NCBI GenBank assembly: GCA_964607515.1
Contig: CAZSKU010000012.1
Coordinates: forward strand, 1,058 to 65,057
Source: an uncultured bacterium
GTDB lineage: Bacteria > Fermentibacterota > Fermentibacteria > Fermentibacterales > JCC-6
Direction: 5' to 3'
DNA length: 64,000 nt
Positions 3-61,015 of the stretch are shown one piece after another (position 1 is the stretch's first letter; each line of letters begins with the position of its first letter). Below the pieces are notes generated by a model that worked only from the letters and a program-made list of their open reading frames with translations, ran no database searches and was not told the DNA's origin. The translations under genes and the position numbers were made by a program.

Positions 3-1235
3 GAGGGGGTTGCCTACGGCATCGAGGAGGCCCTGGCGGACGCCTTCAGGGAAGCCGCGGACATAATCCGCCGCGGCGGCTTCGCGGGCTGCAGCGCAGC
101 CGCCGTGGCATTCTGCGGCACCCACGCCTGGTTCGTCTCCACGGGAACCTGCCGGGTGATCAAGATCGAACCGGAGTCCGCCGCCGTACTGGCCATGGAC
201 GAATCCTCTGCGGCGGCATCCGGAACGGGAAGGGATCATCCGGAGTATTCCCGGAAGGTCCGGGAGCTTTCCCGCTGGCTCGGAAGCGGCAGGGAGGAAC
301 TCTCGGCGGGGCACACCCGGATCAGGCCGGACAGCCTCATTCTCGCGGCAACCCCCGGTGTGTGGATGCATATGAAGGACGGAAGCGTCTCCCGCCGGGG
401 CGTGGGAAGAAACCTCGACGCTTGGGTGGCGGGGATGGTCAGGGAAGCCCGTACCGCCTACCGCCGTCAGGGCGGAGCCGCGGCGGCGGCCTGCTGCAGC
501 ACCTCCGGAGGGGGCAGGATTCCGGTTCTGCCCTTCGTGGCTGTGGCGGCCATGGTTGTCCTCGGGGTGCTTCTTGCGGCGGGGGTCTTCGACTCTAGAA
601 GCCCTTCTGAAGAGACCGATACCTTTTTCTCCGGAGCCGATTCCACCGTCCAGGAGGTGGTGATGCCCCTGGAAACCGATTCGTCCTCCAGATTCTGGAG
701 CTACTCGCGGCTGTCGGCTCTGGCCGCCGACCCGGCCGGAGCCCCGCCGGACCTTTCCGCATACCTTCCCGTAGCCGGGGTACTGGCGGGCGGTGACTCC
801 ACCGCGTTCTCCCCGGACACCTTCGCCCTGGCCGGGAACCTGAACCCAGACCTGCAGTGGGAGAACTTCCGGCCCGGGATCTACCCCCTGGCCGGGGACA
901 CCGGGGCGGTGTTCCTGGCGGAATCCCTGAGGGAAAGGTACCCCGAACTCCCCGTAATACCGCTTTCCACGATCATCACCGTGAGGGAAGCCGAAGTGGC
1001 CGCCATGTCGCCGTGGCTGAGGAATCTGGAACCCGGCTCCGCCTCTGGGGTGGGGGTGGTGGTGGAAACCGGCAGCAGTGTCGCCGGAGGCGCTTCCTGG
1101 ATCAGGAACTACCCCGTCTTCATAAACGGGAACCGGGCCAACCAGGGGCTGGGGGGGGGCTTTCTGGGTGATTCGGTGCCGGGGATTCCGACGGGGCGGA
1201 ACGAATCCTGCTACAGGATTCTGATAATTCCCTGA
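3..1235 (+). CDS. hypothetical membrane-anchored protein, 5' end outside the window; Gly/Pro-rich C-terminal region with one predicted TM helix
   Basis: The reading frame is open from the window edge. It is in frame with ORF 105..1235 and continues upstream of the first ATG. A hydrophobic stretch (VLPFVAVAAMVVLGVLLAAGVF) is followed by a Pro/Gly/Ala-rich region. I could not recognise a family. Confidence 0.45.
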   Translation, partial: EGVAYGIEEALADAFREAADIIRRGGFAGCSAAAVAFCGTHAWFVSTGTCRVIKIEPESAAVLAMDESSAAASGTGRDHPEYSRKVRELSRWLGSGREELSAGHTRIRPDSLILAATPGVWMHMKDGSVSRRGVGRNLDAWVAGMVREARTAYRRQGGAAAAACCSTSGGGRIPVLPFVAVAAMVVLGVLLAAGVFDSRSPSEETDTFFSGADSTVQEVVMPLETDSSSRFWSYSRLSALAADPAGAPPDLSAYLPVAGVLAGGDSTAFSPDTFALAGNLNPDLQWENFRPGIYPLAGDTGAVFLAESLRERYPELPVIPLSTIITVREAEVAAMSPWLRNLEPGSASGVGVVVETGSSVAGGASWIRNYPVFINGNRANQGLGGGFLGDSVPGIPTGRNESCYRILIIP

Positions 1236-29077: not shown

Positions 29078-30364
29078 ATGACAAGGACAACGCCCCTGCT
29101 TCTCCTGTTCCTGGCCGCTCTTGCTGCGGCCCAGACCGGAGAGACCCAGCCACCCCCCGCGGACTCCGGGGTCGTCGAGTCGGCCGCGGAACCCTTACCG
29201 GCGGAACCCGAACCGGTTCCCGCGGCTGAGATCGCCCCCCCGGGGGGAATACTGGTGACGGACTACCCGGACGACGCCGGCGACAGGCTCATGGTCTGTT
29301 TCGAGCCGGGCGCCGAAGCCGGCGATCCCGACCTCTTTGCGGCGTACCAGGTTTTCAGGAGACCCCTCGGGGCGCCTGACTCGGCCTGGGCCATGGTTAA
29401 CATGATCCCGGTGGGCGAGGGAACCAGCTTCATAGACGGCTTCGACCCGGACTTCCCCGTGGAGGAGGGTGCGCAGTACGAGTACCGGGTTGACGCACTC
29501 TACCTGGATCAGACCGTGGTTGCGGGGGAGGCCATTGCCGCCCAGGAGGTCGCATCCGGCCAGTGGTTCCACACCGGCAAAGTCAGGGTGCTGGTCGCCT
29601 GCGCCATATTCCTCGGCCTCATCTTCTACTTCTTCTCCCGGGCCAAGACCGGCGCCAGCATGTACCTTCGGCCGATCGCCGGCATCGAGGCCATTGACGA
29701 GGCCATCGGGCGGGCCACGGAAATGGGCAAGCCCATTCTTTACGTCCCGGGGCTTTCCTACATCGAAGACGTGGCAACCATCGCCAGTCTGACCATCCTG
29801 GGAAGGGTGGCCAGGAAGGTGGCGGAGTACCAGACTCCCCTGTGCGTACCCAACACGGACCCCATAGTCTTCACCGTGGCGGAGGAGGCGGTGAAGCAGG
29901 CGTACCTGGAGGCCGGCCGCCCCGACTCCTACGACCCTGACAGCGTGTTCTTCCTGACCCAGAGCCAGTTCGCCTTCGTGGCGGGGGTGAACGGGATCAT
30001 GATGCGCCAGAAGCCCGCCACCAACTTCTACCTGGGCATGTTCTGGGCTGAGAGCCTGATTCTTGCCGAGACGGGGTCCCTCTCCGGGGCGATCCAGATA
30101 GCCGGCACCGACGCGGTCACCCAGCTTCCCTTCTTCATCACCACCTGCGACTACACCCTGATCGGCGAGGAACTCTACGCCGCCAGCGCCTACCTCAGCC
30201 GGGAGCCCATGCAGATGGGCTCCATCAAGGGACTGGACGCGTGCAAGGCGATACTGATGGTCTTCATCACACTGGGCATCATTCTCGCCCTTGTGGATGT
30301 GGCTGCGGAAACCCAAACCCTGGCGTGGCTCAAAGACCTGGTAACGTCTCAGGTGATGGACTAG
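29078..30364 (+). CDS. uncharacterised membrane protein A1: signal peptide, Ig-like extracytoplasmic domain, TM, conserved ~180-aa core, C-terminal TM
   Basis: MTRTTPLLLLFLAALAAAQT signal peptide. An extracytoplasmic domain contains DGFDPDFP...YEYRVD. TM helix VLVACAIFLGLIFYFF. Conserved core YLRPIAGIEAIDEAIGRATEMGKPILYVPG...FFITTCDYTLIGEELYAASAYL. No family recognised. First gene of the coupled operon. Confidence 0.6.
   Translation: MTRTTPLLLLFLAALAAAQTGETQPPPADSGVVESAAEPLPAEPEPVPAAEIAPPGGILVTDYPDDAGDRLMVCFEPGAEAGDPDLFAAYQVFRRPLGAPDSAWAMVNMIPVGEGTSFIDGFDPDFPVEEGAQYEYRVDALYLDQTVVAGEAIAAQEVASGQWFHTGKVRVLVACAIFLGLIFYFFSRAKTGASMYLRPIAGIEAIDEAIGRATEMGKPILYVPGLSYIEDVATIASLTILGRVARKVAEYQTPLCVPNTDPIVFTVAEEAVKQAYLEAGRPDSYDPDSVFFLTQSQFAFVAGVNGIMMRQKPATNFYLGMFWAESLILAETGSLSGAIQIAGTDAVTQLPFFITTCDYTLIGEELYAASAYLSREPMQMGSIKGLDACKAILMVFITLGIILALVDVAAETQTLAWLKDLVTSQVMD
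29668..30196 (+). repeat. near-identical duplicated segment, copy 1 (inside A1); perfect-identity core about 29768..30195
   Basis: By direct comparison it matches 39258..39784. About 428 bp are 100% identical, with few-mismatch flanks. The coding sequence on either side is divergent. Confidence 0.8.
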
Positions 30365-37053: not shown

Positions 37054-37129
<76 letters not shown>

Positions 37130-37142
37130 ACCCCCTTTCACC

Positions 37143-37532
37143 ATGAAGTACGATCCCAACGCCGTCACGATTCAGCCCATGGGCGCCGGAGGCCCCGGAG
37201 GCCAGCACCAGAACCGCAGCTTCACCGGGGTCACCCTGATTTTCAGCATATCCGACAGCGGGCTCCCCGAGGAAGTGGCCCAGCGGCTTCGGGAAGCCGC
37301 AGGATCCCGGCTGAACCAGCGTGACGAGATAATCATCCAGGCCAGGGAACACAGGAGTTTCGAACAGAATCTCAGGGCCGCCAGGAAAAGGCTGGAGAGG
37401 CTTCTGGACCGGGCAGGCCGGGCTCCGGCGGTCAGGATTCCCACCAGCCCGTCCAAGGCGTCACGGGAAAGAAGACTGCAGGAAAAGCGCCTTCGCGGGG
37501 AAATCAAGAAAAGGCGAACCGAAGATTTCTAG
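37143..37532 (+). CDS. arfB: alternative ribosome-rescue factor ArfB (peptidyl-tRNA hydrolase, RF1-type GGQ domain)
   Basis: GPGGQHQNRSFTGVTL GGQ motif, plus a basic C-terminal tail (KRLQEKRLRGEIKKRR). Confidence 0.8.
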   Translation: MKYDPNAVTIQPMGAGGPGGQHQNRSFTGVTLIFSISDSGLPEEVAQRLREAAGSRLNQRDEIIIQAREHRSFEQNLRAARKRLERLLDRAGRAPAVRIPTSPSKASRERRLQEKRLRGEIKKRRTEDF

Positions 37533-38710
37533 GGTTCTATGACAAGGTAAGGGGCGTCTTCCTGGAGCTGCACGACCCTCCCTATGACCGCTGAGGCGGT
37601 ATCCCCCCCCTGGTGAAGACGGTCCAGGGCCTCGCCGGCCTGATCGGGGCGTACGGCAGCCAGAAGACCCCCGGAAGTCTGTGCGTCGAACAGGAGTTTG
37701 ACCAGGTCCGGATCCAGACCCTCGGTCATGGAGACGTTTTCCCCCACGTACTTCCTGTTGTTGCCCGAGCCGCCGGGGAAGAAGTCCCTGGCGAACTTCC
37801 TTCCCCCCGGGAACAGCGGGACGCTGTCGGCGTTGAAGGAAAACCCCACCCCTCCGCTTCGTGCCATTATCAGGGCGTGCCCCAGCAGCCCGAATCCCGT
37901 GATGTCTGTCATGGCGCTGACATCCAGCTCCCTGAGAATCCGGGAAGCGTAAAGGTTCAGCCTCTCCATGGAAGCCACAACCGGACGGAACAGAGAATGG
38001 GGAAGGGCGGAAGCCTTGTTGGCGGTGGTCAGCACACCGGAGCCGAGAGGCTTGGTGATTACCAGAAGGTCTCCCGGACGGGCCATGGAATTCCGAAGGG
38101 CCTTTCCCGGATCTATCACCCCGGTGACGCTGAGGCCGAATACCACCTGATCCTGTTCCATGGTGTGTCCGCCCACCAGGACGACTCCAGCCTCAACCAT
38201 CTTCTCGCAGGCGCCGGACAGGATCTGCTCCACGATATCGGAATCCAGAACATTGCCCGGAAAACACAGGAGGTTCATGGCTGTCAGGGCGTCGCCGCCC
38301 ATGGCCCAGACGTCGGACATGCTGTTGGCGGCGGCGATCCTGCCGAACTCGAGCGGGCTCGGAACTATCGGCTGGAAGAAGTCCACGGTCTGCACCAGTG
38401 CCTTGTCCGGCGTCAGCAGATAGACCCCTGCGTCATCCATGGACTCCATGCCCACGATGAGATTCTGCGACCGGATCCTTGGGAGCCTCTCAAGAATCCC
38501 CGACAACCTGCCGGGGGACATCTTGCCGGCTCAACCGGCGCATGCGGCGTAGTCCATCAGATTGATGGAAGGCTTCGCCATCGCCCCAGCCTTTCCCAGA
38601 ACATCCTTCTCGCAGTACACCTGTTCCCCCAGGAGTTCATGGAACTTCCTGCATGCGACGCAGTCGCCGTGGCGTTCGCACTCCATGGGACAGGGGCAGT
38701 TGATGTTCAT
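37529..38710 (-). CDS. selD: selenide, water dikinase SelD with in-frame UGA (Sec) codon and a Cys-rich N-terminal extension
   Basis: ORF 37529..38521 carries SelD motifs (LVGMESMDDAGVY...GGHTMEQ...MTDITGFGLLGH). In-frame upstream the reading continues MAKPSINLMDYAACAG-TGA(38531..38533)-AGKMSPGRL, so the TGA sits at the position of the catalytic Cys/Sec. The frame stays open to the ATG at 38710 (MNINCPCPMECERHGDCVAC...), preceded by AAAGGGGA. Translation from 38581 is an alternative start. Confidence 0.75.
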
Positions 38711-38737
38711 TCATCCCCTTTCAATCGGGATTACTGT

Positions 38738-38766
38738 ATTATACCAGGCCTGGTGTGCTTCTCCAA
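38738..38766 (-). promoter_or_regulatory. candidate sigma70 promoter for selD (-35 TTGGAG, 17-nt spacer, -10 TATAAT)
   Basis: Read on the minus strand: TTGGAGaagcacaccaggcctggTATAAT. It lies about 25 nt upstream of the 38710 ATG. Confidence 0.4.
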
Positions 38767-38796
38767 TTCCGGGGACGGTCGCGAAAGGGCGGTCAC

Positions 38797-39951
38797 ATGG
38801 TTCACCTGCTCATGCCGGGGGTACTCTGCCTGATGGTTCCGGAAATAGCGTCGGTAACCGATGTTCCCAACGACGCCGGCGAATTGCTGATGGTGGAGGT
38901 GTCGTTTCCCTCAGGGGTCGAGGAGGTCGGCGGTTTCCTCCTCTGGCGCACACCCGCCGACCTGGACGCCTGGGAGCTGGTGATGGTGGAGGCTCTCCCG
39001 CTGGAGTCCAACCTGCTGATGGACGGTTTCGATCCGGACTATCCCCTGGTTCCCGGAACCCGGTACCTGTACCGTCCCGGATTGATCACCCTTCAGGGGG
39101 ACACCCTCCCCGGCCCGGTCTTCACTGGCGCCGAAGCTCCCTCGGGGTCATGGTTCAACACCGGCGAGACGCCCACCCTGGCGGCCTGCCTGATTTTCAT
39201 GGCGCTGATCTTCTACTACTTCCAGAGAGCCCTCAAGGGCGCGGAGTTCTACCTCCGGCCGATCGCCGGCATCGAGGCCATTGACGAAGCCATCGGACGG
39301 GCCACGGAAATGGGCAAGCCCATTCTTTACGTCCCGGGGCTTTCCACCATAGACGACGTGGCAACCATCGCCAGTCTGACCATCCTGGGAAGGGTGGCCA
39401 GGAAGGTGGCGGAGTACCAGACTCCCCTGTGCGTACCCAACACGGACCCCATAGTCTTCACCGTGGCGGAGGAGGCGGTGAAGCAGGCGTACCTGGAGGC
39501 CGGCCGCCCCGACTCCTACGACCCTGACAGCGTGTTCTTCCTGACCCAGAGCCAGTTCGCCTTCGTGGCGGGGGTGAACGGGATCATGATGCGCCAGAAG
39601 CCCGCCACCAACTTCTACCTGGGCATGTTCTGGGCTGAGAGCCTGATTCTTGCCGAGACGGGGTCCCTCTCCGGGGCGATCCAGATAGCCGGCACCGACG
39701 CGGTCACCCAGCTTCCCTTCTTCATCACCACCTGCGACTACACCCTGATCGGCGAGGAACTCTACGCCGCCAGCGCCTACCTGGGGCGGGAGCCCAGGCA
39801 GATGGGGGGTATAAAAAGCCTTGACGCATGCAAGGTCATCATCATGACCCTTATAGTTTTGGGAGTAATCGCATTCCTGGCGGATTTCCTGGCCGGAACG
39901 GATTTCCTTCCGCGGATCAGGGGCTGGATCACCACCCCCGAGGGCTTCTGA
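38797..39951 (+). CDS. uncharacterised membrane protein A2, orphan paralog of A1
   Basis: Same architecture as A1: N-terminal hydrophobic leader, Ig-like domain with DGFDPDYP, a TM helix, a core essentially identical to A1, and a divergent C-terminal TM tail. RBS GCGAAAGGGCGG resembles the A1 RBS GCGAAAGGCGGG. Confidence 0.6.
   Translation: MVHLLMPGVLCLMVPEIASVTDVPNDAGELLMVEVSFPSGVEEVGGFLLWRTPADLDAWELVMVEALPLESNLLMDGFDPDYPLVPGTRYLYRPGLITLQGDTLPGPVFTGAEAPSGSWFNTGETPTLAACLIFMALIFYYFQRALKGAEFYLRPIAGIEAIDEAIGRATEMGKPILYVPGLSTIDDVATIASLTILGRVARKVAEYQTPLCVPNTDPIVFTVAEEAVKQAYLEAGRPDSYDPDSVFFLTQSQFAFVAGVNGIMMRQKPATNFYLGMFWAESLILAETGSLSGAIQIAGTDAVTQLPFFITTCDYTLIGEELYAASAYLGREPRQMGGIKSLDACKVIIMTLIVLGVIAFLADFLAGTDFLPRIRGWITTPEGF
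39258..39784 (+). repeat. near-identical duplicated segment, copy 2 (inside A2)
   Basis: See copy 1 at 29668..30196. Confidence 0.8.
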
Positions 39952-56769: not shown

Positions 56770-57846
56770 TTGAAACTGCTCTGCACCGCCGATCTTCACC
56801 TGGGAAGAAGCATACCCCTTCCAGAGGATGTTTCCCAGGATGCCCATGGTCCTTCCAGGGCTTGGCGGCTCATCTGCGACATTGCGGTGGACGAGAGGGT
56901 GGATGCCCTGCTAATAGCCGGGGACGCCATAGATTCGGAGAAGAGTTACGCCGAGGGCATGGCGGTATTCCGGAACGGTCTCAGAAGGCTCCAGACTGCG
57001 GGCGTCCCGGTGATCCTGACCGCCGGCAACCATGACTGGAACCTCCTGGCCGAGGCAGCCATGGGCTTTCCCGGGGTTGTTCCCCTTGGTCTCTCCGGAC
57101 GCTGGGAAACCCATTCGCTTGGCGACGTGACAATCCTGGGATGGTCCTTTCCCGGAAGACATCACAGGGAGTCGCCCATGACGGGCTTCCCGGATATCCT
57201 TCCGGAAAAGACGGTCGGCCTTCTCCACTGCGACCTGGACTCCGGGGGCGGTCTCTACGCGCCGGTTAGGACCGGTGAGCTGGAGTCCAGGCCCGTAGCC
57301 AAATGGGTGCTCGGCCACATGCACTCCCCTCTGGACACGGACAGGCTTTTCTACCCCGGTTCGCCGCTGGGTCTCAACGCCGGGGAGACCGGGCCGAGAA
57401 GCGTGGTGATGCTGGACACCGATATGATGAGCTGCCGAAGGATTCCCATGGCGGTGCTGGAGTGGAAGCTGGTTTCCATCACCGAAGACGACCTTCTGGA
57501 TCCCGAAGAGCGGATTTCCTCCGCGGTGGAGCGGGTTCTCGGCGCCGAGGCGGGATCCGTGCTCACGGGATTCAGGGTTCTTTTCCAGGGAAGAACCGCC
57601 AGAAGCAGGGATTTCAGGAAGGCCGCAGCCTCCCTGGACAACGCCGCTTTTCCCGGCTTTTTTATCCAGCAGGCCATTGATGAGACGAAACCTCTGCTGG
57701 ATATCGCGGCTCTGGCGGAGGGAAAGAAGATGAGTTCGCTGTTGGCGGCGGAGGTGCTGGCCATGGATCCCCGGAGTGAGGACTACTCCGTGGGTGTAGA
57801 ACTGCTGGAGGAACTCCTGGAGCGGGAGCGGGGATTTGAGGATTAG
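56770..57846 (+). CDS. sbcD: metallophosphoesterase, SbcD/Mre11-like DNA repair exonuclease
   Basis: LCTADLHLGR...IAGDAID...TAGNHD...GHMH calcineurin-like motifs. Confidence 0.75.
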   Translation: MKLLCTADLHLGRSIPLPEDVSQDAHGPSRAWRLICDIAVDERVDALLIAGDAIDSEKSYAEGMAVFRNGLRRLQTAGVPVILTAGNHDWNLLAEAAMGFPGVVPLGLSGRWETHSLGDVTILGWSFPGRHHRESPMTGFPDILPEKTVGLLHCDLDSGGGLYAPVRTGELESRPVAKWVLGHMHSPLDTDRLFYPGSPLGLNAGETGPRSVVMLDTDMMSCRRIPMAVLEWKLVSITEDDLLDPEERISSAVERVLGAEAGSVLTGFRVLFQGRTARSRDFRKAAASLDNAAFPGFFIQQAIDETKPLLDIAALAEGKKMSSLLAAEVLAMDPRSEDYSVGVELLEELLERERGFED

Positions 57847-60800
57847 GAGCCTGCGGATCGTCACAATGCCCGGGTTCCCTTTGAACGGGCCCGTGCTCGA
57901 GGATCTGAGCCAGGGCATGAACGTGGTGATCGGGGCCAACGGGGCAGGGAAAACCACCCTGGCCCTGGCGGTGAGGTGGCTGCTGTGGCCTGCTACGGCT
58001 GGCAGGGGCGCGCCTCGCGTGGTTTCCGCCCAGACCTACGACAACATTCCCCTGGAGATCAACCAGAGCCACCGGGAAGGCCAGGACAAGTTGAAGCTTC
58101 CTCCCGACAGCCATGCCGACTGCTTCACCATAACCGCTGACGACCTGTTCGACGGGGGAACGGCATCCTTTGCAGACAGAGTGAAGCAGGCCATCACCGG
58201 GCAGGTCTCGGTGGACTCCCTGTACCGGAAAGAGGATGGTTCCCGGGCTCTGGAGACCGAACTGGCGGGATTCCGCAAGGACTACGAGAACAGAGCTCGG
58301 GAGATCGAGGGGAAACACGGGCTTATCTCCCGGCTGCCGGAGCTGCGCGAGAAACTGACCGAGGGTAGAAAGGCGGAGCAGAGGCTGGTTCTCCTCAGGG
58401 AAGCCCTGGAGTTGCGGGAGATAGATGTCCGGCTGGCATCCATGAAGGGAATGGAGAACACCGCGCCCACAGACCTGGGAAATGCCCAGAGGCTCAGGAA
58501 AGAGATCAACGCCCTCAAGGCCGGCATTGCCGAACTGGATCGGCAGTCGGAGAAATGTCTGCAGAATATCGAGGAGACGGGTCTGAACGAGGTGCCCGAC
58601 ACTCTGGGCGAGATCAGGGCGCTGCTTGAAAATGTCAAGGCGTCGGCCCGGAAGAAGAGTGATCTGGAGGAGAGCCTCGCCGGGCTCCTTCGAGTCCTGG
58701 AGGGGGTACCCGACAATGCCGGGCTGGAGGATCTGGACAAAGTCCTCTCCTCGGTGCTGGAACACGAGAAGATTCTTGAGAGGATACGGGAACTCGGAAG
58801 CCGGAAGGCGGCACTTGAGGAAACCCTCGGGGATGTCCGGGTGGAGGAGTTGGAAAGGGGGAGAAGCCTCCTGATCCGATGGCTGACCCAGAGGGAGCAC
58901 AGGGATCTGATTATTCCGGCGGGGCTTCTCACGGTGGCGGTTCTTCTGCTGCTGGGAGGCGACACGCGCCTGGCCGTCCTGGCCCTGGTCCTGTTTGCAT
59001 GGTCTTTGCTGGCCCCGGTGGTGCAGATGAAGCTGCTCCAGGGGAAATACCGGAAGACAGGGCTGCAGGAGCCGTCGTTCTGGGCAGGCAGGGATGTGAT
59101 CGGTTTGGTGAGAGCCTTGGAGACAACGATGGGCGATCATCGGTCTCTTGTGGAAACCGGCAGGGATATGGCCCGGCTGCAGGAGGAGGCCGACGACCTT
59201 CGGCAGCGCAGTCTGGGAATCCGCGAGAAGACGGGGGTGAACTCGGCCTTGGGCATGGAGATGCTGGTGGACAGGATGAAACGGTCCGGCGAGGTGGACG
59301 TCCTGAAGGGCAGGCTCGAGAAGGTGGACGCCGGGCTGAGGGACGACCTCCTGAGGCTGGGGGAGCTGCTCGGTGCATGGAATGTTCCGCCTCCCGACAG
59401 TGTCCAGCAGGCGGCGGGAGGCGTTGAGGCGCTGGAGGAGAGAGTCCGGATCTACATTCAGGAGGAGTCATCCCTTAAAAGCCTTCGCAGGGAGGCTGAA
59501 GCATCCCGCAGGAGACTTGCCGACCTGGAGGTCGAAATGGGAGGGATATTCTCCAGGAACGGCTTGGAGACAGGGGATTTCGACTCGCTGAAGGAGAGGG
59601 ACGGAAAGCTCAATTCCTATCTTTACCTGGTCCAGAGGCGAGACTCGATGAAAAAACATGGTGAAGGCGTCCTGTGTCCGCCGGAATCCCTGGAGGAGGA
59701 GATTCGAGCGGCGGAGGAAATGGCGGCCACCTTGGACGATACCCGGGAGAAAGTCACCCTGGCCATGGACGCCGAGAGGAAAATGGTGCAATCGGTGGAA
59801 CTGGTGGATATCCTTTCCCGGATTGCACAGGCGGAGCGCAAGCTTGAGGCCAGGAACGCCGCCAACCGGAGAGTTCGAATACGCAACAGACTTCTTGACG
59901 CTGTGAAGAGGAAGTACCAGGTGGAAATCCAGCCGCCGGTGGTGAACCGGGCGTCGAGTCTGCTATCCCGTTTCACCGGGAACCGCTACAGCTTGAACCC
60001 GGTAGGGCTGGAAGACGAGGACATCTCGGCACTGGACTCGGAAACCGGAGCGGCGCTGCCCCTGGAGCACCTTTCCCGGGGAACCAGAATGCAGCTTCTG
60101 CTGGCCCTGAAAATCGCTTTCGCCGAACTGGTTGAGGCCGGTGACAGGCTTCCGATTATTCTCGACGAAGTGCTGGCGAATTCTGACCTGGAACGGTTCA
60201 GGGAGGTAACCCTGGCCATGGTGGAACTGGTTCGCCAGGGCAGGCAGATCTTCTATCTCACATGCCAGGAGCCCGACGCATCCCTGATTCGGCAGGTCTT
60301 CAAGGAGTCCGGAGATATTGCGGTGAAGGTCATCCGTATAGACCGCGCAAGCCCCGGGGCATGGCCCGACTACACGGGGCTGATAGAGAGCGTCCCCCAG
60401 CCCGGCGGGCTCTCCTACGACCGGTACGTCCGGCTGCTGGAACCGCCGGGTGTCGTACGGGGGATGAGTCCCGGCGGGATTCATCCCGCCTGGGTTCTCC
60501 ACCGTACGGATACCCTGCACAGGCTTCTCATGGCCGGGCTGAACAGCCTGGGTAAAGCCTTTGCCTCCGGCACTTCCGTTCTGGACGCAAAAGAAGCCCG
60601 GGAACTGGAACAGGCCAGACTGGTTGCGGAGAGGGTTCTTTCCCTTTATACCCGGGGGAGGCCTGAACCATTGACCAGGAAGACCCTGGAGGAATCACCC
60701 GTGGGACGATCCAGACTTCTGGACGATGTGTGGTCCCTTTCCGCGAGAGTCGGGCATCACCCGGCGAGGCTTCTGGAGGAACTCAGGCAGAAGGGGGTGC

Positions 60801-61015
60801 CCGGTTTTCGCTCCGCTCTCGTGGACGAGTTCGAGGAATTCCTTCAGGCACATGGGTATTTGTGCCGGGAACAGCCTATTTCCAGGGAGGAAGCCCGGCT
60901 TCATGTTCTGGAATCGGCTGAGGGGGATCCGGAGCGTGTCCGGACGATCTTCGAGAGGTTGTGGGATTCACTGGAAAGTTCCGGCAGACCAGGGAGTCGT
61001 GGGTTGCAGGCATGA
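57836..61015 (+). CDS. sbcC: SbcC/Rad50-like AAA ATPase (YhaN-like) with central hydrophobic hairpin
   Basis: N-terminal Walker A (VVIGANGAGKTTL), long coiled coil, C-terminal signature and Walker B (LSRGTRMQLLLALKIAF...ILDEVLANSD). Two hydrophobic segments (LIIPAGLLTVAVLLLLGG and LAVLALVLFAWSLLAPVV) lie mid-protein. Confidence 0.75.
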   Translation: MRIRSLRIVTMPGFPLNGPVLEDLSQGMNVVIGANGAGKTTLALAVRWLLWPATAGRGAPRVVSAQTYDNIPLEINQSHREGQDKLKLPPDSHADCFTITADDLFDGGTASFADRVKQAITGQVSVDSLYRKEDGSRALETELAGFRKDYENRAREIEGKHGLISRLPELREKLTEGRKAEQRLVLLREALELREIDVRLASMKGMENTAPTDLGNAQRLRKEINALKAGIAELDRQSEKCLQNIEETGLNEVPDTLGEIRALLENVKASARKKSDLEESLAGLLRVLEGVPDNAGLEDLDKVLSSVLEHEKILERIRELGSRKAALEETLGDVRVEELERGRSLLIRWLTQREHRDLIIPAGLLTVAVLLLLGGDTRLAVLALVLFAWSLLAPVVQMKLLQGKYRKTGLQEPSFWAGRDVIGLVRALETTMGDHRSLVETGRDMARLQEEADDLRQRSLGIREKTGVNSALGMEMLVDRMKRSGEVDVLKGRLEKVDAGLRDDLLRLGELLGAWNVPPPDSVQQAAGGVEALEERVRIYIQEESSLKSLRREAEASRRRLADLEVEMGGIFSRNGLETGDFDSLKERDGKLNSYLYLVQRRDSMKKHGEGVLCPPESLEEEIRAAEEMAATLDDTREKVTLAMDAERKMVQSVELVDILSRIAQAERKLEARNAANRRVRIRNRLLDAVKRKYQVEIQPPVVNRASSLLSRFTGNRYSLNPVGLEDEDISALDSETGAALPLEHLSRGTRMQLLLALKIAFAELVEAGDRLPIILDEVLANSDLERFREVTLAMVELVRQGRQIFYLTCQEPDASLIRQVFKESGDIAVKVIRIDRASPGAWPDYTGLIESVPQPGGLSYDRYVRLLEPPGVVRGMSPGGIHPAWVLHRTDTLHRLLMAGLNSLGKAFASGTSVLDAKEARELEQARLVAERVLSLYTRGRPEPLTRKTLEESPVGRSRLLDDVWSLSARVGHHPARLLEELRQKGVPGFRSALVDEFEEFLQAHGYLCREQPISREEARLHVLESAEGDPERVRTIFERLWDSLESSGRPGSRGLQA

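Follow-up and report, generated by a model that had tools for sequence, protein, structure and literature searches.

A 64,000-nucleotide (nt) stretch of DNA from an uncultured Candidatus Fermentibacteria bacterium (contig CAZSKU010000012.1 of assembly GCA_964607515.1; this whole stretch is hereafter called the window) carries on its minus strand the gene selD, whose annotation is split between a 59-amino-acid (aa) "hypothetical protein" and a 330-aa "SelD" lacking the catalytic selenocysteine (Sec) and lysine. The best explanation of the data presented below is that the two are very probably a single gene encoding a 393-aa, Sec-containing SelD of Candidatus Fermentibacteria, to whose N-terminus a small, Cys-rich module is fused. 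It is strongly supported that one polypeptide is made, with Sec at residue 60 directed by a hairpin downstream of an in-frame UGA, although the incorporation of selenium at that residue is a prediction from DNA sequence.

The selD frame opens at ATG 38710..38708, meets an in-frame TGA at 38533..38531 after 59 codons, and continues for 333 more codons up to the TAG at 37531..37529. A first-pass annotation of the window had traced the frame back through the TGA to the ATG at 38710, and the 393-aa read-through product bears this out. The window's list of open reading frames (ORFs) shows the gene as two entries, one of 59 aa (38531..38710) and one of 330 aa (from ATG 38521). Since another in-frame TGA stands directly before ATG 38710, the start cannot lie further upstream. 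The gene and its elements are arranged as follows:

38761..38766, minus strand: -35-like hexamer TTGGAG
38738..38746, minus strand: extended -10 element TGgTATAAT
38714..38721, minus strand: ribosome-binding site AAAGGGGA, separated from the ATG by 3 nt
37529..38710, minus strand: complete selD frame with one UGA read through, 393 aa plus TAG stop (TIGR00476 at 4e-101)
38606..38710, minus strand: Cys-rich module, residues 1-35; C5, C7, C11, C17, C20, H24, and C33 invariant, H14 nearly so
38567..38605, minus strand: variable linker, residues 36-48, whose length differs among lineages
38534..38566, minus strand: canonical SelD N-terminus, residues 49-59 (..INLMDYAACAG, including Cys57), aligning with E. 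coli SelD residues 6-16
38531..38533, minus strand: UGA codon, residue 60, predicted to be read as selenocysteine
38498..38516, minus strand: hairpin resembling a selenocysteine insertion sequence (SECIS), with an 8-bp stem and a GGU apical loop (38508..38506), beginning 14 nt after the UGA
37532..38530, minus strand: SelD body, residues 61-393, with Lys63 and the AIRS and AIRS_C domains

When the read-through product was searched with Sec written as Cys, it matched the NCBIfam selD equivalog TIGR00476 at 338.3 bits (cutoff 125), residues 51-358 falling on model positions 2-311, as well as the Pfam domains PF00586 (AIRS; 6.6e-22) and PF02769 (AIRS_C; 1.2e-18). Since the TIGR00476 match covers residues 51-358, SelD homology runs across the UGA. 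Structure alignment placed residues 44-369 on E. coli SelD (PDB 3u0o), beginning at the first residue of the E. coli protein, with the UGA residue 60 on the E. coli Cys17 and K63 on Lys20, a correspondence that holds only if the UGA is read through. In Aquifex aeolicus SelD (2yye), the UGA falls on position 13, where Sec was engineered to Cys (Sec13Cys). The surrounding sequence reads ..NLMDYAACAG-U-AGKMSPGRL.. (U, selenocysteine), giving the active site C57-A-G-U60-A-G-K63. These results agree with the first-pass claim that selD is itself a selenoprotein gene with its UGA at the catalytic Cys/Sec site, and they strongly support the prediction from sequence that the enzyme is a SelD making selenophosphate from selenide and ATP.

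The alternative that suggests itself from the annotation is a pair of genes, in which the UGA is the true stop of a 59-aa peptide related to the Pfam family DUF6485 and SelD is translated separately from ATG 38521. Gene callers make this same split everywhere, free-standing module proteins of ~50 aa exist in other organisms, and ordinary genes of the window end in TGA more often than in any other stop codon. However, the 59-aa product would end in the canonical SelD N-terminus, and a SelD begun at ATG 38521 (Met64) would be without Sec60 and Lys63, the counterparts of Cys17 and Lys20; a downstream start that keeps a complete active site is therefore not available here. We regard two genes as very improbable, and the conservation, hairpin, and gene-cluster results that follow also argue against them.

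The same arrangement was found in six Candidatus Fermentibacteria (candidate division Hyd24-12) genomes and one JGI contig. Together with 15 loci from more distant lineages, the eight Fermentibacteria loci (window included) make up a set of 23, within which eight further module-bearing loci with TGA, obtained from a metagenome pattern scan, are counted. In all eight Fermentibacteria loci, the TGA occupies the same codon and is in frame with a complete SelD, and in the more distant lineages the same TGA is followed by A-[GA]-K and the SelD body. Codon 60 was TGA in 23 of 23 loci and TAA or TAG in none, and the two annotated ORFs always shared one frame, which would not be expected of separate genes. 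Since a single mutation would convert TGA to TGC or TGT, its strict retention over such deep divergence argues that Sec is actually used.

Substitution patterns among the eight Fermentibacteria loci indicate that the sequence upstream of the UGA is protein-coding. Pairwise substitutions at codon positions 1/2/3 numbered 55/41/244 in the module and 650/411/2533 in the SelD body, and the synonymous fraction was 0.75 for codons 1-35, 0.31 for the linker, 0.83 for codons 49-59, and 0.73 for the body. Because the 75% of substitutions that are synonymous in the module lies near the 73% of the SelD body, we conclude that the Cys-rich N-terminal extension, whose presence had been pointed out in the first pass, is translated. 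The linker between module and enzyme, to judge by its substitutions, evolves freely. A scan for in-frame TGAs with coding signal on either side picked out selD both in the window and in five of seven relatives, and the selD TGA is the one clear case in the window and in most relatives. The scan's only other match, with coding-like composition around a TGA at 61013 of the window, is at the end of a 1059-aa AAA_23/SMC-like ORF (57836..61015) and most likely represents two adjacent genes sharing one frame.

The hairpin downstream of the UGA has the sequence CCCCGGCA-GGU-UGUCGGGG (38516..38498). The first-pass annotation had described a CCCCG...CGGGG hairpin about 11 nt after the UGA as possibly part of a bacterial SECIS element; the hairpin proved real, its distance proved to be 14 nt, and the SECIS interpretation is supported both by covariation and by an independent prediction of the helix. 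From 63 aligned nt beginning at the UGA, RNAalifold predicted a single conserved helix that pairs columns 18-25 with 29-36 around a 3-nt loop. Across the 23 sequences, 89.1% of cells were paired vs 73.1% in shuffles (0 of 500 as high) and the covariation score was 0.370 vs 0.097 (0 of 500), bearing in mind that related sequences may exceed shuffles without any structure. When the 3' partners were slid by 1-3 columns, pairing fell to ≤49.5%, and double (compensatory) changes occurred at four pairs; pair 21-33, for example, was CG in 11 sequences, GC in 6, UA in 2, AU in 1, and UG in 1, and pair 23-31 was CG in 10, GU in 9, AU in 2, and GC in 1. Such an origin of the signal is argued against by the control with slid registers and by how many types of pair were seen. 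A covarying hairpin at the place expected of a SECIS again speaks against two separate genes. Minimum-free-energy folding of the single sequence had given another register, in which one C bulges from the stem; this was rejected since covariation favors the continuous 8-bp register. A lower stem predicted for the window sequence was not conserved among the relatives. The hairpin resembles the SECIS of E. coli fdhF in lying within the coding sequence shortly after the UGA and in presenting GGU in a small apical loop flanked by ..GCA and UG.., and differs from it in lacking a bulged U in its conserved upper stem.

Several observations weigh against Sec decoding by way of this hairpin. Codon constraints and shared ancestry could lie behind part of the covariation signal. 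The apical loop is only 3 nt, and GGU is at +26..28 from the U of the UGA vs +22..24 in fdhF, i.e., 4 nt further away. A scan of the window at the Rfam gathering threshold gave no match to the hairpin, and a permissive scan of 38400..38600 gave noise only (E>4); we would not expect Rfam to represent bacterial SECIS elements in general. The first-pass annotation had inferred that selA, selB, and selC lie elsewhere in the genome. Neither the 64-kb window nor the flanks, 20 kb each, examined in seven relatives contained selA, selB, or a tRNA-Sec gene. The large ORFs scanned in the window encode DnaX, RecA, Dxr, RseP, UvrD, a DUF6754 protein, and others, with no SelA or SelB among them, and the only RNA genes found by Rfam and tRNA scans are tRNA-Phe (37054..37129) and SRP RNA. 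A search seeded with the SelB of a sister lineage (L024, see below) returned entries under Chitinivibrionales, KSB1, and WOR-3 names, and none of its best 120 matches was identifiable as Fermentibacteria.

It could consequently be argued that the UGA lies within one polypeptide and is read by near-cognate suppression, as Cys or Trp, or that the Sec machinery has been lost in this lineage; the Fermentibacteria sequence at hand yielded no gene of that machinery. Nevertheless, a conserved SECIS-like hairpin whose stem shows compensatory changes would serve no purpose in the absence of SelB, the TGA has been strictly kept although one mutation would remove it, and the closest sister lineage has the full Sec machinery. 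In that lineage, L024 (GCA_043803945.1), SelD is 53% identical to that of the window, reads ..SACAG-U-AGK.. with the same hairpin, and has the C-A-G-U active site but no Cys-rich module. Its selA and selB genes are immediately upstream of selD, and a tRNA-Sec gene lies 7 kb downstream:

L024:4998-11005: selA, selB, an HGD-D family gene, and a split selD, in that row
L024:18237-18333: tRNA-Sec gene

Suppression or loss of the machinery therefore seems extremely improbable, and the sister selA-selB-selD cluster with its nearby tRNA-Sec is one more argument against two genes. Several SelB and truncated SelD matches lie on contigs of equal size (39340, 18871, 9024, and 10791), which, if these are the same contigs, suggests similar linkage in related lineages.

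The start of the gene is likewise conserved. The promoter consists of TTGGAG at 38766..38761, a 17-nt spacer, and TGnTATAAT ending at 38738, and it is the sole sigma-70-like site in 37300..39000, where 0.3 would be expected. In eight of eight Fermentibacteria loci, TATAAT and GGAAAGGGGATGA-ATG are unchanged and TTGnnn is present at the -35 position. The promoter and ribosome-binding site that had been proposed ahead of the ATG are thus both present and conserved.

The module itself, residues 1-35 (MNINCPCPMECERHGDCVACRKFHELLGEQVYCEK), follows the pattern C-x-C-x3-C-x5-C-x2-C-x3-H-x8-C. It is nearly invariant in close relatives, and seven of its residues (six Cys and one His) are invariant across lineages that are just 40-50% identical. 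The N-terminal 59 aa gave no match in Pfam or NCBIfam. When 1.84 billion representatives were searched exhaustively with a profile, 52 module proteins were found, which fall into four groups. The first comprises ~14 SelD fragments of 58-79 aa that align over their full length and end in ..L[ML]D[YF]xxCAG exactly before the UGA, and a SelD body followed every such fragment whose DNA was examined. The second consists of free-standing proteins of ~50 aa, the third of tandem duplicates (P0016, P0041, and P0056), and the fourth of fusions to GNAT acetyltransferases, in which the module is C-terminal in Oscillospiraceae and Bacillota metagenome-assembled genomes (L008:2464-3084 and L009:9560-10150) and N-terminal in P0042. 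The cysteines C5, C7, C11, C17, C20, and C33 are present without exception in all groups. R13, G15, and H24 vary only rarely, and H24 not at all among the SelD-linked members. Comparison of the SelD-linked with the free-standing set by hhalign indicated homology (probability 98.9%, E = 2.9e-17), which also extends to the GNAT-fused copies.

The family nearest to the module appears to be the uncharacterized DUF6485 (PF20095), for which a literature search found no function, structure, or paper. The N-terminus from the window gave no match to this model even at E≤1, and the tandem member P0041 passed its cutoff (25.9 vs 24 bits, profile positions 5-45 of 70). The module and DUF6485 share the pattern C-x-C ... 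C-x-R-H-G-x-C-x-x-C-x3-H ... C. Since the link runs only through profiles, we call the module a distant relative of DUF6485 and not a member. That the extension belongs to a recurring domain family of this kind had not been recognized in the first pass.

To place the fusion among SelD genes, metagenomes were scanned for TGYGCNGGNTGAGCNGGNAARNT, which gave at least 120 stretches and is a sample rather than a census. The 120 stretches listed held 77 SelD recoding sites, of which 8 had the module in frame upstream, 66 were without it, and 3 were cut by contig ends; the module-bearing share of the sampled C-A-G-U-type SelD loci was thus ~11% among the matches listed. Every module-bearing locus among these matches retained 6-8 of the 8 hairpin pairs vs mostly 2-4 of 8 in the others. 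Other long upstream frames in the sampled SelD loci were considered as extensions and rejected: their G+C content at third codon positions is below that of the gene body, a canonical Met lies 15-20 codons before the UGA, and they are open frame through non-coding DNA. One related SelD (L007:10001-11311, CAWJQI010000005.1) has 436 aa instead of 392, with an unrelated C-terminal tail that probably arose from misassembly or a frameshift close to the 3' end of the gene.

In a neighbor-joining tree built from SelD bodies, the enzymes with the module all belong to one clade, made up of Ca. Fermentibacteria (including the window) and other uncultured lineages, in which only L024 and L051 are without the module. 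The tree fits a single acquisition of the module followed by loss. All module-bearing SelDs are Sec forms with a C-x-x-U (CxxU) active site. The converse, that CxxU is restricted to module-bearing SelDs, was ruled out by L024 and L051, which have CxxU without the module. No single ORF joining the module to a SelD in the Cys form was found in the profile search of 1.84 billion representatives, among which a rare Cys form could be hidden because they are clustered at 50% identity; nor was a single-ORF fusion found among the best 120 matches to the full-length query (303-373 aa, ≤88% query coverage).

The module also occurs outside SelD beside a UGA. In small proteins of ~70 aa, it is followed by a hydrophobic helix and by ..C-P-[AS]-TGA-ATG-CGN.., with a true stop behind; the residues after the TGA are M-R, or sometimes G-K or G-E. 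Four loci were recorded:

L017:40-252: module with C-x-x-UGA tail
L016:944-1156: module with C-x-x-UGA tail
L021:778-999: module with C-x-x-UGA tail
L022:8001-8228: module with C-x-x-UGA tail

A hairpin begins 14-16 nt after the TGA in GC-rich and AT-rich genomes alike. The read-through products had no match in NCBIfam, and they are candidates for a new family of small selenoproteins with a C-terminal CxxU. The L022 hairpin, behind which lies a T-rich run, could instead be a terminator.

Taken together, these features lead to a working model for the enzyme, which is strongly supported except in what it proposes for the role of the module. Translation would begin at ATG 38710, and SelB with Sec-tRNA(Sec), recruited by the hairpin 14 nt downstream, would insert selenocysteine at the UGA (38533..38531). 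Sec60 would then be the catalytic residue in the mobile N-terminal loop C57-A-G-U60-A-G-K63, and the remaining protein would act as a normal SelD, producing selenophosphate from selenide and ATP. Ahead of this loop, the 35-residue Cys6His module would be tethered by a flexible linker of ~13 residues, where it might bind selenium or a metal, either as zinc or as an iron-sulfur cluster, and act together with the CxxU loop, either capturing selenium and handing it over or reducing the Cys57-Sec60 selenenylsulfide.

Such a role for the module, binding metal or selenium and assisting the CxxU loop in selenium relay or redox chemistry, is possible but tentative, and would resemble what has been proposed for the NifS-like and NADH-dehydrogenase-like domains of other CxxC/CxxU SelDs. 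A link to selenium is supported by three findings: every SelD found with the module is a CxxU Sec form, separate mini-proteins couple it to a C-x-x-UGA tail, and the NifS and Ndh fusions of SelD are analogous. A more specific proposal, that it is a dedicated selenium-handling domain that passes selenium to the CxxU loop and that the mini-proteins are selenoprotein selenium carriers, is rather doubtful; the module would here bind selenide or perselenide, or hold a metal or Fe-S center that reduces the Cys-Sec selenenylsulfide.

It is quite possible, on the other hand, that the Sec-SelD assignment is right and the module is a generic structural zinc domain that helps the protein to oligomerize, stabilizes it, or docks it onto nucleic acid or a partner, and that was fixed by chance in one SelD clade. 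Free-standing, tandem, and GNAT-fused copies are without an obvious selenium link, L024 and L051 indicate that a CxxU SelD can do without the module, and the linker between module and enzyme is variable and presumably flexible. The AlphaFold model of the module is only moderately confident (predicted local distance difference test score, 72), and structure comparison found no solved relative, both of which count against the selenium proposals. Against a purely structural role stand the exclusive pairing of the module with CxxU Sec forms in SelD, the independent small proteins with another C-x-x-UGA tail, and the fact that known N-terminal fusions of SelD are selenium-delivery or redox domains that likewise accompany CxxC or CxxU (PMC2398784, PMC4561486).

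The genes around selD are also conserved. tRNA-Phe (37054..37129, plus strand) is followed by a gene for a 129-aa, ArfB-like protein with an RF-1 domain and a GGQ motif (about 37143..37532, plus strand), which converges on selD and whose final 4 nt run into the stop codon of selD; the same gene order is seen in seven of seven Fermentibacteria relatives. Paralogous DUF6754 genes are located at 38755-39951 and 29078-30364 (plus strand), one of them divergent from selD in an arrangement that is kept even in the deeper-branching L014. Elsewhere in the window, a bacterial small SRP RNA gene (1308-1406; Rfam, 76.8 bits) lies directly upstream of dnaX (1462-2877), which encodes DNA polymerase III gamma/tau.

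SelD is the second largest family of prokaryotic selenoproteins (PMC13188914), and a Sec-containing SelD is well-established biology, here found in a new lineage. Like known Sec-SelD/SPS2 proteins, the enzyme of the window matches TIGR00476, has AIRS and AIRS_C domains, places its UGA at the catalytic loop position with a Lys three residues on, and has a stem-loop just downstream of the UGA and inside the coding sequence; the A. aeolicus structures (PDB 2yye and 2zod) were solved as Sec13Cys. Unlike these proteins, it has ~43 extra N-terminal residues forming the Cys6His module. Its active site is also unusual, since only ~5.6% of single-domain Sec-SelDs have CxxU (PMC2398784). Protein-database surveys would miss both the Sec form and the module in this clade: in a database of 5.8 billion proteins, the best 120 SelD entries were all truncated, including the NCBI SelD [Candidatus Fermentibacteria].

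Extended forms of SelD have been described previously. All Ndh-SelD fusions have CxxC and NifS-SelD has CxxU, whereas CxxC occurs in <5% of single-domain SelDs (Zhang and Gladyshev, PMC2398784). Prokaryotic fusions join the N-terminal domain to a Cys form of SelD, except for the NifS-SelD of Geobacter sp. FRC-32 (Mariotti et al., PMC4561486), and the extra domains of NifS-SelD and Ndh-SelD are presumed to serve selenium supply or redox chemistry (PMC2398784, PMC4561486). In Mariotti 2015 with its supplement, Zhang 2008, and reviews of 2022 and 2026, the extensions described are only Ndh, NifS, a methyltransferase (Naegleria), and that of Plasmodium (large). Nothing relevant came from literature searches on a Cys-rich SelD extension, on DUF6485, and on selenium in Fermentibacteria/Hyd24-12.

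How selenium reaches SelD in vivo is still called "incompletely elucidated" in the 2026 review (PMC13188914), and genomic clues to this delivery come mainly from the NifS-like and Ndh-like fusions. A third and independent fusion at the N-terminus, with the rare CxxU, would offer a small, tractable domain for tests of selenium or metal binding, and the SelD fusion provides a first functional context for the DUF6485-like family. Should the module indeed be dedicated to selenium, a missing piece of the selenium route to SelD in vivo would have been identified. Like NifS-SelD and Ndh-SelD, the window protein combines an N-terminal extra domain with an extra Cys three residues before the catalytic residue (C57-A-G-U60). 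Unlike them, its added domain is only 35 residues long, Cys-rich, and without similarity to NifS or Ndh, the ~43-aa extension having given no Pfam or NCBIfam match of the COG1252 (NADH-dehydrogenase-like) or COG1104 (NifS-like) type. The fused DUF6485-like module looks like an undescribed variant of SelD architecture.

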